Source of the DNA: Akkermansia muciniphila
Lineage (GTDB): Bacteria > Verrucomicrobiota > Verrucomicrobiia > Verrucomicrobiales > Akkermansiaceae
Assembly: GCA_945883695.1 (NCBI GenBank)
Contig: CAMCYK010000002.1
Span: 5,676 to 69,675, forward strand
Direction: 5' to 3'
Length of the DNA stretch: 64,000 nucleotides
This document shows, one piece after another, positions 51,545 to 62,053 of this stretch; position 1 is the stretch's first letter; every line of letters starts with the position of its first letter. Both the position numbers and the translations under genes were made by a program. The notes under the pieces were generated by a model, which made no database searches, was not told where the DNA came from, and worked only from the letters and a program-made list of their open reading frames with translations.

Positions 51545-51907
51545 CCGCGGCGGGACGGCTTGCCGGATCCCCGGCAGCCGGGACGCCAGCGCCTCCCAAT
51601 CGCCGAGGTGCGCCCGCATCAGGCTCTTCCACAGCTTGCCGTGGTTTGGCACGGAGAAATGCAGCAGCTCGTGGACGATCACGTAGTCTCCCAGCTCCCG
51701 CGGCAGGTCCAGCAGCTCGTCATTGAAGCTCAGGGTTCCCGCCGTCGAGCATGACGCCCACTTCCGGCTCATCGGCCGGATGTAAATCGAATGAGCATCC
51801 ACGTTCAGCTTCCGCGCCCATACCAGAACGCGTTCCTTGAACTCGTCCCTACCCCTCCACCCCGTCGCTGATTTTCCACTGCTCACTGATGACTGATCAC
51901 TTGGCAC
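51512..51907 (-). CDS. Short M48/YgjP-like zinc metallopeptidase, downstream of hsdR
   Basis: KWASCS..G.LSFN, YVIVHELLH..VPNHGK HExxH motif. Start codon uncertain. Confidence 0.75.
   Translation of the reverse strand: MPSDQSSVSSGKSATGWRGRDEFKERVLVWARKLNVDAHSIYIRPMSRKWASCSTAGTLSFNDELLDLPRELGDYVIVHELLHFSVPNHGKLWKSLMRAHLGDWEALASRLPGIRQAVPPRLRSARSSSTG
51876..51902. repeat. 7-nt periodic repeat (ACTG core) spanning the hsdR stop
   Basis: ccactg-ctcactg-atgactg-atcactt. Confidence 0.6.
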
Positions 51908-59368: not shown

Positions 59369-62053
59369 TCAATGCCCATACATCGCACGTCGGCGCTCGA
59401 AGGCAGTTGCCCCTCCCTCTAGAATTTTCTGCACCCAATCCTTAGTCTGAAGCCGATCAATCGATCCGCGCTCAATCACTGTTCCGCAGTCATTCTCTCG
59501 CTGCATTGGCAAGATTAACTCCGCGTCTCCCAGAACGGCGATATTCGCGTTGTGGGTGACGACAATAATCTGACGTCTTTCTTTTACAGCACGAAGGGTA
59601 ACAACAATAGTTGCCGCAATAAACGCATTATCCAAATCATCCTCTGGCTGATCAATTATTAGTGGCACACTTGACTCGGACAGCATGGCAATCGTGAGTA
59701 GAATGGTGTGTCGCTGTCCATCTGACAGCTGGATGACTGGAATTTCTTTTGGGTGCTCTCCTTTTGTCCGGACCGTAATAACGGGTTTGGCGGGTTTGCC
59801 TATTTCCTGAAGATCAAAAATTATTCTCCACTTCCTCATTTTTTGAATAATTTCTTCAGCCCATTCTTTGGAGACTCCAGAACTATCTGCGATGCTTTGC
59901 GGATTATTATCGTAGATCCAACCAGAAAGTTCGTCTGGTGTGATTTTTGAACACATTGCTCGCGCAGTCTTCTCTGGAAAATGGCTCCCTGTCATTGCCG
60001 TCTGAATGAATTCGACAAAATCATCAATAATCCCACCTTCATCGTATTTAACAAAAACAAGATAGTCCTGAAGCGTACTCCCAAGCATTTTATTGATATA
60101 CGCAAGCTGTGCCTTGCGGCGCTTGGTCATCTCGCCTCGAACTCGGGCCAGTTCAGCGCGCAGTTCTGAACGTGTAGTTCTTGACCCAAGCAATTCGGGT
60201 CTCCGCTTCTCAATATTCGCTATCTGCCCACCAAGAACACCCTTCTCGCGTATCCACTTTTCAATCTCGGCAATATTGCCCGCTAGGCCCTTTGATTTTA
60301 GCTCTGCGATTTTTGGAGCAAGCTCTTCATTCAGCCTGACATGATTTGCCTTGAGGGCAGCACATTGAACTTCTAGATTAGCCGCGATCGTTTTCAACCC
60401 ATCGTTAATCTCCTGCGTCTTTCGCGTAAGTAGGAGCTTTGCAGCACTAAATTCGCCTCTGATCTGATCGATGGCTGTGGCCGAGGCAGGGTCGCTTGTA
60501 ATTTCTCCCGCCGATTCAATGAAAACGTCGAGGTCTCGCTCAAATCCCGACAGATCGACTCCTTCTCCGTAATCTCTAACTACGCCTTCAACAGCTTCCT
60601 TCACTGTGCGCTCTGAACTAATTTTACTTTGAAGTCCGACAATTTCCTTGAGCTTGCCTTCTTCTGCAATTTGCAGCTTTTTATCAATTTCCCCGTGGCT
60701 CAACTTTTTTTGCTTTAACTGACCAAAGGTTGTCTCAAGAGCAAGCAGTGAAGCGCCATTCTCACGCAATTGGGCAATCAACGCATCCTCCTCTTCAATC
60801 AAGTCTCTCAGGTTTGTGTACCTGTCTAAGAACGACTGGAAAAGACCCGGTGAATTCATTGGATCTTTCGCGATCTCTGCCAGATCTCCCTGCCCAAGGT
60901 ACTCGACAGCAAAAGAATCTAAAGGAGCGTCAGCAACCGAACCATCGGCTTTCGCCTTGACGAAAATATCGCCCGATCTCGAACGTTCATAGCGATAGAG
61001 ATTACCGTCCCCACTTTCACAAAACACCTGCACTAAATCCGGACAGTTATCGAACTCCTCTAATTCGTTGTTCAACCCAAATGCGTAAGCGAGTGCACGG
61101 ATGGCTGTTGACTTGCCTGTTCCTCGTCCACCGATGAAGCAATTGAGATTGTCACTGAATTGAATGAGTTCTCCATCCAAGAACCCTCCGGTCATTGAGA
61201 TTCCGACAACTTTCGGGATCGCTTTCGGAAGGGTTGCTTTGGCCTTCACTCGAGCTGTGGGATCGGTGAGAGCTGTTCGAAATGCATCCCAAGTCAAATC
61301 CGTCAGTTTCATTCGGGTCCACGGTTTGGAGGGGATCGATGCTTCGAAGCGAGCTAAACTGTGGGCATCCGAACCTTGCAGATGAGCGAGATGGTGCCGC
61401 CCCTTGAGTTCTGGCACATCGAGCCTCGCCATGAAAATATCACGCCGCACGCTCGCATCAGAACTTCCGGACTCTTCCTCCGAATACCAATCCAATGTCT
61501 CGATAGCGTCGCACTCTAAACCAAATAGCCCAGGATTGAGAAGGATGTCTCGCTTCCAATTCTGAAATCCAGGGGCAAACTTGTCGAACCCGGTTTTTTC
61601 ACGATCGATATGTGCAGCGATGCAGATCCCCCCCAGTTTGTAGGCTTCCGCGATCACATCTGACATTGATTTAGCAGTATGCGTGTTTTCAGCCCCCTTG
61701 ACACCAACGAGATCAAGCTTCACCAGAAACCGCGAAAGATCATCGATTTTTTCGGGATCGAAGTATGCAAGAAGATGTCCGTGTGCCGTGGTTACCTCTA
61801 CCCCCGGAATCACAACTATCGACCCACCAAACCCCTTGGCGTATGCAACAGCCTCCGCGACGTTTACATCAGAGTTATGATCGGTGATTGCAATGACGCT
61901 GAGTCCCTGTTTTACCGCTGAATCAACAATCGCCTTGGGTGTCATTGCGGTATCCGAAACATCGGCCGATGCTCCATATGAGTGAATGTGTAGATCCACA
62001 TTAACGAACCGAGCTCCGTTCTCAATTGCATCGATATCTTTGAATGTTGCCAT
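59369..62053 (-). CDS. PHP phosphoesterase + SMC-like ATPase fusion (Ppl/TrlF-like)
   Basis: PHP motifs DLHIHS, ITDHN, GVE, AAH, GSDAH; Walker A GGRGTGKS; coiled coil; LSDGQR; IIDQPEDDLDN; VTHNANI. AT-rich relative to host. Confidence 0.88.
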   Translation of the reverse strand: MATFKDIDAIENGARFVNVDLHIHSYGASADVSDTAMTPKAIVDSAVKQGLSVIAITDHNSDVNVAEAVAYAKGFGGSIVVIPGVEVTTAHGHLLAYFDPEKIDDLSRFLVKLDLVGVKGAENTHTAKSMSDVIAEAYKLGGICIAAHIDREKTGFDKFAPGFQNWKRDILLNPGLFGLECDAIETLDWYSEEESGSSDASVRRDIFMARLDVPELKGRHHLAHLQGSDAHSLARFEASIPSKPWTRMKLTDLTWDAFRTALTDPTARVKAKATLPKAIPKVVGISMTGGFLDGELIQFSDNLNCFIGGRGTGKSTAIRALAYAFGLNNELEEFDNCPDLVQVFCESGDGNLYRYERSRSGDIFVKAKADGSVADAPLDSFAVEYLGQGDLAEIAKDPMNSPGLFQSFLDRYTNLRDLIEEEDALIAQLRENGASLLALETTFGQLKQKKLSHGEIDKKLQIAEEGKLKEIVGLQSKISSERTVKEAVEGVVRDYGEGVDLSGFERDLDVFIESAGEITSDPASATAIDQIRGEFSAAKLLLTRKTQEINDGLKTIAANLEVQCAALKANHVRLNEELAPKIAELKSKGLAGNIAEIEKWIREKGVLGGQIANIEKRRPELLGSRTTRSELRAELARVRGEMTKRRKAQLAYINKMLGSTLQDYLVFVKYDEGGIIDDFVEFIQTAMTGSHFPEKTARAMCSKITPDELSGWIYDNNPQSIADSSGVSKEWAEEIIQKMRKWRIIFDLQEIGKPAKPVITVRTKGEHPKEIPVIQLSDGQRHTILLTIAMLSESSVPLIIDQPEDDLDNAFIAATIVVTLRAVKERRQIIVVTHNANIAVLGDAELILPMQRENDCGTVIERGSIDRLQTKDWVQKILEGGATAFERRRAMYGH

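Follow-up and report, generated by a model that had tools for sequence, protein, structure and literature searches.

Truncated hsdR starts between anti-phage cassettes suggest how a type I restriction–modification operon acquires and reshuffles embedded defence genes without an integrase

The window, a 64,000-nt stretch of the 74-kb Akkermansia muciniphila contig C2, contains one type I restriction–modification (R-M) operon that carries three anti-phage cassettes, with two dead copies of the hsdR start as separators. Read along the minus strand, the array runs from hsdS through a TrlF/Ppl-like PHP-ATPase gene with a 271-aa gene, hsdR relic 1, ptuA–ptuB, hsdR relic 2 and PDC-M04A/B to hsdR and a YgjP-like gene (Table 1). 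Gene calls and profile matches bear out this order and the minus-strand layout, both proposed in an earlier note on the same DNA. HsdM and HsdS are encoded together, with the hsdM gene located just beyond the window. The KilA-N gene between them is truncated by the window edge, and the whole gene extends to position 69978 of contig C2.

Table 1 Features of the R-M operon and its flanks. Positions are those of the window unless another locus is named; L numbers are loci of the survey.
Feature	Position	Strand	Evidence or remark
KilA-N domain gene, between hsdM and hsdS	63467..64000	-	Pfam KilA-N 4.6e-20
hsdM, outside the window	L015:1207-2805		Pfam N6_Mtase 6.8e-84 and HsdM_N
hsdS, specificity subunit	62077..63285	-	Pfam Methylase_S 9.7e-24; PADLOC Specificity_I 4.7e-58
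Cassette 1, gene 1: 894-aa PHP + ABC-ATPase, TrlF family (a Ppl relative)	59369..62053	-	NCBIfam TrlF_fam_ATP 426.6 bits
Cassette 1, gene 2: 271-aa protein	58530..59345	-	stop overlaps relic 1 ATG
hsdR relic 1	58099..58533 (open frame to 58048)	-	BLASTP 2e-42 vs HsdR; alignments
Joint 1: non-homologous DNA, relic 1 breakpoint to PtuA start	58002..58098	-	alignments
Cassette 2: Septu PtuA (ABC-type ATPase)	56673..58001	-	PADLOC PtuA 2.3e-109
Cassette 2: Septu PtuB (HNH nuclease)	55940..56686	-	PADLOC PtuB 1.2e-46; stop abuts relic 2 ATG
hsdR relic 2: hsdR start to 'EDLLDA'	55726..55940 (open frame to 55560)	-	BLASTP 2e-17 vs HsdR
Relic 2 tail: 34-nt repeat insertion (55692-55725) and 12-nt hsdR remnant (55673-55684)	55673..55725	-	L128 comparison
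Cassette 3: PDC-M04A (DUF3800)	54865..55563	-	PADLOC 4.6e-67; Pfam DUF3800 3e-14
Cassette 3: PDC-M04B	54430..54864	-	PADLOC 1.3e-55
Two-hairpin element 3' of M04B	54352..54416	-	81-98% nt identity in 10 loci
hsdR, 801 aa	51897..54302	-	Pfam HSDR_N, SWI2_SNF2, ResIII, T1R_D3-like; TIGR00348 442 bits
YgjP-like metallopeptidase gene	51512..51907	-	Pfam YgjP-like 6.9e-26; synteny
HicB	51044-51244	+	HicB Pfam match
HicA	51241-51447	+	HicA_toxin Pfam match

The first cassette begins with an 894-aa protein that contains the Pfam PHP and AAA_21 domains and matches the NCBIfam TrlF model (NF045780) over residues 12–893, with 426.6 bits against a cut-off of 350. The NCBIfam Ppl_antiphage model gives 169 bits against a cut-off of 1000, and the PADLOC Ppl model (2.8e-30) matches in three stretches only. 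By these profiles, the protein belongs to the TrlF family and is a relative of Ppl. In the Photorhabdus temperature-restriction locus, trlF is accompanied by trlG, which has AlbA_2 and HATPase_c_4 domains; the partner gene in the window differs. It encodes the 271-aa protein, for which none of 1020 homologues has a Pfam domain and an NCBIfam match is also absent. With neither a Pfam match nor, despite a confident model (pLDDT 86.6), a Foldseek match in the PDB, the label PD-(D/E)XK-like previously given to this protein is not upheld, and the remaining likeness to such nucleases lies at the level of the motif formed by its invariant residues (E17, D46, Q59-x-K61). The second cassette is composed of the overlapping Septu genes, with PtuA matched over its full length. 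Both proteins fall below the NCBIfam cut-offs of the retron-Ec78 type (PtuA 208 against 500, PtuB 62 against 150) and therefore represent stand-alone Septu, not the retron-linked kind. The third cassette contains the adjacent genes A and B of the candidate system PDC-M04. A two-hairpin element with compensatory pairs trails M04B wherever the M04 pair was found, in some cases outside hsd operons. This element is probably an RNA that forms part of the M04 cassette; an Rfam scan of positions 50500–64000 returned no match to known RNA families.

The nuclease and motor parts of the resident HsdR pass TIGR00348 (cut-off 285). Compared with a complete HsdR, composed of nuclease, SF2 motor and C-terminal domain, the protein lacks 212 aa in frame near position 52055, within the C-terminal domain, and the missing region is present in L016 and L019. 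[quoted passage not shown] Restriction activity of the window HsdR is doubtful. In addition, a divergent patch extends from ~60 nt upstream of the hsdR ATG to ~nt 150–190, with 57–78% identity to L016 against mostly 87–98% elsewhere. The gene following hsdR is present as the earlier note described, but its product, there called M48, is YgjP-like. This gene comes after hsdR in 77 of 80 related loci, and the three misses include contigs that end just past hsdR. Next to it, HicAB (region 50939..51563) is located between 75-nt direct repeats of the ygjP 3' end (50939–51013 and 51489–51563; 83% identical).

An assembly artefact was ruled out, as the array recurs in identical order in two further assemblies, zero-mismatch contigs of an independent lake metagenome tile it, and read depth in four metagenome runs is even across all three cassettes (~12–16×). 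The cassettes are of differing base composition, in agreement with the earlier note. The GC3 value is 47–48% for trlF and the 271-aa gene (trlF 46.8%), 62–77% for ptuAB, 66–75% for M04AB and 86% for hsdR, and that of the host is ~82–86%. The common strand and the overlapping stops and starts make it plausible that the cassettes are read from the R-M operon. A terminator scan was uninformative (18 terminator-like sites against 14.1 ± 3.8 expected), as was a promoter scan, and three metatranscriptomes of the same study contained nothing from the array locus.

The homology of the three hsdR copies starts at the ATG, and a 27-nt head motif occurs three times in the window against 0.00 expected. 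Relic 1 is composed of hsdR nt 1–323 with two in-frame insertions of ~33 nt, and shares 86% amino acid and 91% nucleotide identity with relic 2. The open frame of relic 2 overlaps the M04A start as ATGA. Beyond its conserved part, relic 2 continues with a 34-nt repeat insertion and a 12-nt remnant, ACTTGATCCTGA (55673–55684), corresponding to hsdR nt ~325–336. In the sister genome L128, relic 2 is found without the deletion and is joined to the M04 leader in the same way. The insertion and the remnant together show that relic 2 formerly extended to nt ~336 and that its middle part was lost. Moreover, the left joint of relic 2 is of the L017 type and the right joint of the L128 type; its junction with ptuB is the same as the ptuB–hsdR joint of L017, where hsdR is full length. 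By these joints, relic 2 is itself a recombinant of two lineages. Internal deletions like that of relic 2 are also found in L070, L121 and L092, and relics, as read from the alignments, erode via internal deletion and small repeat insertion.

The count across related loci that the earlier note had proposed gave hsdR 5' relics in ~27 of 80 operons from more than 10 phyla, each before different cargo. The cargo includes HipBA, YhcG/DUF1016, a deaminase, DUF3800, AAA_21 with DUF4276, Thoeris ThsA with ThsB, RhuM, DUF1828/1829 and others. Without exception in the survey, the extra hsdR pieces begin at codon 1–3, share the strand of hsdR and lie upstream of it, and internal or 3' pieces number zero among the extra hsdR pieces of the 80 loci. 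The relics are about 13 to 185 codons long. Their breakpoints range from ~nt 35 to 560 of the 2.9-kb hsdR, most within the first ~350 nt, and cluster loosely at nt ~295–346 (~8 of 29) and nt ~35–70 (~9 of 29). These clusters are not the edges of sequence conservation, which is ~0.9 past them. The spacing from stop to start ahead of hsdR heads has a median of 5 nt.

Pieces of hsdM form the mirror image, being 3' tails located downstream of hsdM (L043, L095 and L121). Two loci, L019 and L062, contain in-frame fusions of the relic with an hsdS 3' tail, by which the head of one unit is joined directly to the hsdS terminus of a different unit. That such tails mark every joint was considered and rejected, as they were seen in these two loci only. 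L019, with such a fusion, belongs to the cultured species Haloferula sargassicola (NBRC 104335); most sequences surveyed are metagenome bins. Other loci display simpler arrangements, L056 containing the intact unit hsdS–trlF–hsdR and L121 containing hsdS–M04AB followed by an hsdR head. L128 differs from the window in cargo order, has extra units downstream and has lost the intact hsdR. Among close relatives of the same family the operon occurs in only 9 of 201 genomes, and the fine-scale comparison rests on L016 and L128.

Relics and the hsdR genes of their own operons are 62–98% identical, mostly below 93%, and their differences at codon positions 1, 2 and 3 sum to 149, 127 and 303 (5, 5 and 35 in L090). 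This third-position excess implies that the divergence arose while both copies were functional, in separate lineages. By this pattern, the relics are the starts of different and evidently once-working hsdR alleles. Relics of the window, L020, L041 and L058 are much nearer to the hsdR of other genomes than to their own, which ranks 54–92 of ~100. The own hsdR is the nearest relative of ~7 of 21 relics, and some relics could be of local origin. A simple recent tandem duplication is ruled out by the codon-position pattern and the foreign best matches, which is in line with the earlier note, where the three hsdR starts were not taken for a recent local duplication. Its suggestion that cargo and hsdR arrived as units from different donors agrees with the intact ptuB–hsdR of L017 and hsdS–trlF–hsdR of L056. 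In addition, the hsdR bodies of L092/L093 and L020/L027 are 98% identical within each pair, and their heads only 84–86%. Such mosaic starts, of which the divergent patch of the window hsdR is another, show the conserved hsdR start apparently acting as a homology arm.

We consider it probable, at roughly 60%, that the relics are recombination scars from homology-driven exchange between variant type I operons. Each relic would be the head of a complete working hsdR that formerly came immediately behind the cargo preceding the relic today. The operon family (hsdM, hsdS, cargo slot, hsdR and ygjP) is spread across phyla, with core genes that remain unusually similar in DNA. The DNA of one variant, on meeting another variant in a cell, would recombine with it. 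Homology on one side would come from the conserved hsdR head, elsewhere from the hsdS or hsdM ends, and the other side would be closed by a non-homologous or few-base joint, presumably by general recombination functions, not by a dedicated enzyme. Both cargos would thereby be retained in series, together with one intact hsdR and a truncated head between them. An existing relic could then be the homology arm in subsequent exchanges of neighbouring DNA, and the array would thus change at several positions, not at one end only. Afterwards, the relics would decay by the internal deletions and small repeat insertions described above. Several points stand against this explanation. No recombination event was seen, four metagenome runs gave even depth and no alternative joints, the ~7 of 21 relics nearest to their own hsdR could have arisen locally, and metagenome bins supply most of the sequences. 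Homology-driven exchange also does not account for the clustering of breakpoints, which may reflect preferred sites or counter-selection of longer fragments, and the tight stop–start spacing needs selection or a more precise process than the one proposed.

The earlier note had favoured a serial capture of cargo–hsdR units at the hsdR end, each event truncating the resident hsdR and bringing a new one, with the oldest cassette next to hsdS. The intact units of L017 and L056 and the origin of the relics from different functional alleles agree with such captures. Moreover, the distance from hsdS to the relic is still the native one in L025, L035 and L091, which would fit a resident gene that was cut short, and a further HipBA unit interrupts the hsdR behind M04AB in L128 at nt ~55. 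However, the joint nearest to hsdR, between relic 2 and M04AB, is the most widely shared, being common to the window, L128, L118 and L120 with a remnant in L016, and is therefore old, not the newest. The hsdS-proximal trlF/271-aa cassette, which should be the oldest, is the least adapted to the base composition of the host. Since the cargo order is not invariant, as L128 illustrates, and relic 2 is a recombinant, the polarised chronology is not borne out, and serial capture is an unlikely account of the array.

Tandem stacking of at least two whole operons, for example through an integrated element with a related operon, would leave heads and tails after large deletions, and overlaps with homology-driven exchange as one possible route. 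The relic–hsdS fusions of L019 and L062 resemble deletions from the hsdR of one operon into the next hsdS, and the hsdM 3' tails and the absence of intact hsdR from L128 are also consistent with stacking. Left deletion ends would, however, be expected anywhere in the 2.9-kb hsdR, whereas all fall within the first ~560 nt and most within ~350 nt, and none of the 80 loci has two near-complete operons. We therefore doubt that stacking produced the relics.

Insertion with long target duplication, by which cassettes would enter the resident hsdR start and duplicate tens to hundreds of bases, appears improbable. The repeat lengths of ~35–560 nt overlap the reported 46–423 bp (PMC2853133), the ~7 of 21 relics closest to their own hsdR would fit, and HicAB lies between repeats of the ygjP end. 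However, the near-identical flanking repeats of a single target copy were not found, most heads being 62–93% identical. The third-position excess fits separate functional alleles and not the neutral decay of a duplicate, several relics are clearly of other lineages, and the hsdS-tail fusions are unexpected from simple insertion. It is just as hard to believe that the relics are maintained small genes, either leader frames passing ribosomes between cassettes or HsdR N-terminal domain proteins that have a separate function, since their lengths vary so widely (~13–185 codons) and they contain internal deletions, repeat insertions and in some cases frameshifts (L025, L053), although most keep the start codon and open frame, the relic 2 frame overlaps the M04A start as ATGA, neither hsdS-tail fusion shifts the frame, and the relic frame ends at most ~16 nt from the next gene's start in ~11 of 19 loci (a raw count).

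A site-specific element was also rejected. Genes for tyrosine or serine recombinases (PF00589, PF00239) are absent from contig C2, all 13 integrase matches being on other contigs; the breakpoints vary, and no common motif was found among the cassette joints read. Contigs of four metagenome runs contained no alternative joints, excised circles or deletions between heads. The sole chimeric Logan contig, L112, is ambiguous and could be an assembly path through repeats.

Homology-driven exchange may have a wider consequence, which we put forward tentatively. The first ~340 nt of hsdR and the 3' ends of hsdS and hsdM might act as portable homology arms of an integrase-free cassette platform that operates across phyla. 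Modules would travel as cargo with an hsdR head, enter related operons by ordinary homologous recombination, stack where one joint is non-homologous, and be re-sorted, lost or excised between heads, the relic frames keeping the cassettes translationally linked. If true, this platform would be a general mechanism by which defence systems embed in one another. The relic gene starts at cassette borders provide a readable record of events in more than 10 phyla and point to a simple homology-based mechanism without an integrase. If this mechanism holds, relic hsdR starts could mark and delimit unknown defence cassettes and help to trace the movement of defence genes between distant bacteria.

The array resembles integrons in having serial promoter-less cassettes that share an orientation and are probably read from one end. 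It differs from them in having no IntI-type tyrosine recombinase beside it or elsewhere on the contig, apparently no attC-like motif at the borders read, variable breakpoints and no demonstrable time order. Of the earlier description as integron-like with no integrase, the second part stands for the contig, and the first is an analogy only, without a shared site motif. Phase-variable type I hsdS loci contain silent partial hsdS copies, and inverted repeats, often with a site-specific recombinase, shuffle their specificity domains. The two kinds of locus share truncated type I gene copies as recombination partners; here, however, the unrelated cargo is set apart by hsdR heads in direct repeat. 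Rhs, CDI and T6SS effector loci carry orphan toxin–immunity modules, each with a conserved fragment of the main gene, and these fragments are thought to come from recombination in the conserved part, allowing later re-assortment. In those loci a 3' toxin-gene core is the part conserved, and the displaced modules lie downstream. The hsdR array instead retains a 5' head, has its relics upstream, and carries cargo that bears no relation to hsdR.

Insertion of R-M genes with long target duplication was reportedly described by Nobusato et al. in 2000. Such insertions have direct repeats of 46–423 bp and no mobility gene, and their mechanism is not known (Furuta, Abe & Kobayashi 2010, PMC2853133). 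The hsdR array is similar in its insertion without a mobility gene and its long direct repeats of variable length. However, the repeats there are near-identical and derive from one target, whereas those here are different functional alleles with the left edge always at the hsdR start codon, and the insert here is defence cargo within an R-M operon, there the R-M system itself.

The closest relatives of the array are the defence genes embedded in type I R-M, BREX, DISARM and Hma systems, termed 'guilt by embedding' in the study that also defined PDC-M04 (Payne, Hughes, Fineran & Jackson, bioRxiv 10.1101/2024.01.29.577857). The best-known examples of such embedding are PrrC in EcoprrI and TgvAB in Vibrio VPI-2 (PMC11411939). 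Similarly, Septu, a Ppl relative and PDC-M04 lie here inside a type I operon in operon orientation. Nested defence systems are now used for the discovery of immunity genes, while the embedding papers offer only a 'genomic sink' and leave the route of nesting unexplained (bioRxiv 10.1101/2024.01.29.577857). Truncated hsdR starts between cassettes are not reported there, and our literature search found no paper on hsdR-start scars between defence cassettes. Embedding itself was already known, and the relic scars are an apparently new element; they suggest how type I operons may take up defence genes and rearrange them with no integrase involved.

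The genes named in the earlier note were all found on the minus strand of the window, where they are tightly packed (table), and the packing makes it plausible that the cassettes are co-transcribed with the operon. The ATPase of cassette 1 scores above the NCBIfam TrlF-family threshold (427 bits; cut-off 350) but well below that of the Ppl model (169 bits against 1000), and is therefore a relative of Ppl rather than Ppl itself. Its 271-aa partner, described previously as PD-(D/E)XK-like, has more than 1000 homologues, but shows no Pfam domain and no PDB fold match despite a confident model (pLDDT 86.6), leaving that description unproven. 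Compared with loci L016 and L019, the window hsdR lacks 212 aa of the C-terminal region in frame (near 52055), and two further assemblies share this deletion. The restriction arm in the window is thus probably inactive.

Features of the type I R-M operon and its surroundings (window coordinates unless a contig is named)
Feature	Position	Strand	Remark
hsdM	L015:1207-2805		on locus sequence L015, just beyond window end
KilA-N gene	63467 onward (63467-64000 in window)		278 aa, between hsdM and hsdS
hsdS	62077-63285	minus	
Cassette 1 ATPase	59369-62053	minus	PHP + ABC-ATPase, 894 aa
Cassette 1, 271-aa gene	58530-59345	minus	
Relic 1 frame	58048-58533	minus	161 codons
PtuA, Septu cassette 2	56673-58001	minus	PADLOC 2.3e-109
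PtuB, Septu cassette 2	55940-56686	minus	PADLOC 1.2e-46
Relic 2 frame	55560-55940	minus	126 codons
PDC-M04A, cassette 3	54865-55563	minus	4.6e-67
PDC-M04B, cassette 3	54430-54864	minus	1.3e-55
Post-M04B element	54352-54416	minus	~65 nt, immediately 3' of PDC-M04B
hsdR	51897-54302	minus	
Breakpoint places in hsdR	53957-54008; 54233-54268		nt ~295-346; nt ~35-70
In-frame ~30-34 nt insertions	58139-58171; ~58236-58268; 55692-55725		
In-frame ~30-34 nt insertions and hairpin repeats in hsdR	54166-54185; 53568-53647; ~52290		
YgjP-like gene	51512-51907	minus	3' of hsdR
HicB/HicA pair with its flanking repeats	50939-51563	opposite to operon	
1866-aa protein gene	44002-49602		nine PATR repeats

The truncated hsdR starts that had been noticed between the cassettes are genuine. 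Relic 1 matches HsdR residues 1-108 (2e-42) and relic 2 residues 1-54 (2e-17), and the window contains three copies of a 27-nt head motif against 0.00 expected. Homology of all three hsdR copies begins at the ATG. The two relics are 86% identical in amino acids and 91% in nucleotides and share a 45-nt insertion absent from the full hsdR, to which they are just ~76-79% identical across the first 108 nt. Two further assemblies contain the same array, which is also tiled by zero-mismatch contigs from an independent lake metagenome, and read depth is even (~12-16x) across all three cassettes in four estuary runs.

Searching with the HsdR protein yielded 80 related loci, and these are the ones read among at least 589 pattern matches for the family. 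They span more than 10 phyla, with HsdR at 71-85% amino-acid identity, and those with enough flank have the common layout hsdM, gap, hsdS, gap, hsdR, ygjP. A second or third head was found in 24 loci by HsdR-start search, and scanning for the motif brought in three more, all very short, so that ~27 of the 80 carry extra heads. All extra hsdR pieces begin at residue 1-3, on the same strand and upstream of hsdR; internal or 3' pieces are absent from the 80 loci. hsdM shows the mirror image, with additional 3' tails located downstream of the complete gene in L043, L095 and L121. The cargo between relic and hsdR belongs to at least 15 families, including HipBA, YhcG/DUF1016, a deaminase with HATPase_c_4, DUF3800, AAA_21 with DUF4276, Thoeris ThsA with ThsB, RhuM, DUF1828/1829 with DUF6978, and a PIN-like protein. 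The expectation that truncated 5' copies in related loci each precede distinct cargo is therefore borne out. Across more than 10 phyla, hsdR and hsdM of this family are ~80-90% identical in nucleotides (L016-L095), and column consensus over the first 600 nt of hsdR is near 0.9; this identity suggests that the operon core has spread horizontally, recently and widely.

Decay after a local duplication would produce no third-position bias, whereas differences between relics and their own hsdR, summed, number 149, 127 and 303 at codon positions 1, 2 and 3 (5/5/35 in L090, 8/6/28 in L035). The bias indicates that divergence mostly arose under protein-level selection in separate lineages, and the relics are heads of different, once-functional hsdR genes. 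For the window, L020, L041 and L058, the relics resemble hsdR genes of other genomes far more than that of their own locus, which ranks 54-92 of ~100 by best hit; the locus's own hsdR is the nearest relative in ~7 of 21 relics. Moreover, intact parent units exist elsewhere. In L017, the PtuB 3' end leads into a full-length hsdR through an identical stop/start joint, and the head of this hsdR belongs to the relic 2 lineage; L056 reads hsdS-TrlF-hsdR, and L121 carries a head after hsdS-M04AB. These observations support the earlier proposal that the units came from different donors.

The stop of the preceding gene lies a median of 5 nt ahead of the head start, and in 15 of 75 cases stop and start overlap as ATGA, irrespective of cargo. 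The 3' breakpoints of the heads vary from locus to locus. With shared joints collapsed (n=29), ~8 fall at hsdR nt ~295-346, around GACCTGATCCTGATCGATTAC, and ~9 at nt ~35-70. The former, main place lies just ahead of the nuclease core, and the clustering is loose. Neither place is a conservation edge, as conservation stays near 0.9 past both. Several seemingly short relics are eroded long ones. In relic 2, the match ends at 55726 and is followed by a 34-nt repeat insertion, after which the relic retains ACTTGATCCTGA (55673-55684), corresponding to hsdR nt ~325-336. A Luteolibacter genome, L128, contains the undeleted relic, joined at the identical base to the identical M04 leader, and deletions of the relic 2 kind are found in L070, L121 and L092. 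L019 and L062 each show an in-frame fusion between the relic and an hsdS end, of which the conserved final ~25 codons are retained (...EEKRERD/QFQDLFRTLLHELM... and ...SLFFDD/LFKTMLHELM...); these fusions are direct joints of one unit's head to another's hsdS end.

Short in-frame insertions, often translating as P-S-P-x-G-Y-G-G-like peptides, and hairpin repeats are scattered over the relics and tolerant hsdR loops. One ~34-nt copy coincides precisely with the deletion in relic 2. Heads of L019, L020, L027, L041, L053 and L120 carry related insertions, and one variant lies in hsdS of a lake metagenome.

The window and L016 hsdR have the downstream chromosomal flank in common (88% in nucleotides) and are mostly 87-98% identical, except for a divergent patch from ~60 nt upstream of the ATG to nt ~150-190 (57-78%). 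Two pairs within the 80 loci, L092/L093 and L020/L027, combine 98% identity in the hsdR body with just 84-86% in the head. In addition, the left joint of relic 2 comes with PtuB, as in L017, and its right joint with M04AB, as in L128, L118 and L120, so a crossover must lie inside relic 2. These sequence patterns indicate that heads are exchanged by homology. In a Logan contig (L112), PtuB is followed by a head equal to relic 2 for ~140 nt and then to relic 1, lacking the second 33-nt insertion of the latter; it may represent a recombinant or variant strain, or an assembler path through repeats.

The earlier note read the array as a polarised time series, oldest by hsdS, and as integron-like. 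Neither part is supported. The relic 2-M04AB joint, closest to hsdR, is common to the window, L128, L118 and L120, and L016 keeps the M04 leader and post-M04B element with the M04 genes gone, so this joint is old. The hsdS-proximal cassette is compositionally the most foreign (GC3 47-48% against ~82-86% in host genes). L128, with no intact hsdR remaining, has a cargo order unlike that of the window: hsdS, 349-aa gene, head, deleted M04AB, head, HipBA (probable, assigned by ORF size alone), head, PtuA-like gene, ygjP fragment. Arrays thus change at several positions.

The relics are most likely recombination scars, left by exchange between variants of a single operon family that has been widely transferred. 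In the route that we infer, homology would be supplied by the conserved hsdR head (and hsdS or hsdM ends), while a non-homologous joint at the opposite side would stack two cargos and leave a truncated head. Relics would serve as arms for later exchanges, and would erode. The 74-kb contig contains no recombinase gene, and no recombination event, circle or deletion variant was seen in four metagenome runs.

Several other elements accompany the array. The post-M04B element also occurs in L118, L120, L016, L119, L121, L123, L124, L126, L127 and L128, is more conserved across phyla than the two M04 proteins, and forms two hairpins with compensatory changes; it has no Rfam match, and L016 retains it despite having lost the M04 genes. 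The element is probably an RNA component of the PDC-M04 (RlfA/RlfB-like) system. A terminator-like hairpin sits after M04B, such sites overall being not above chance in the scan. A 64-codon frame and the KilA-N gene are embedded between hsdM and hsdS, and L020 has a KilA-N gene, 51% identical, at the equivalent place. Direct repeats of the ygjP 3' end, 75 nt long and 83% identical, lie on either side of HicBA as a third kind of core-gene fragment edging a small cassette, and L016 is arranged likewise. The gene with PATR (autotransporter-associated) repeats lies downstream of the locus, past a TatD DNase gene.

Type I operons are known to harbour embedded defence genes (Payne et al., bioRxiv 10.1101/2024.01.29.577857; TgvAB, PMC11411939), and how such embedding arises was left open by Payne et al. 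The literature searched, which excludes many subscription journals, contains no description of hsdR heads lying between cassettes of this kind. The relic scars make the origin of this embedding testable. Insertion with long target duplication of R-M genes (PMC2853133) is alike in repeat length and absence of mobility genes, but needs both repeats from one target, which the hsdR heads here do not fit. The closest functional analogy is found in the orphan modules of Rhs and CDI loci.
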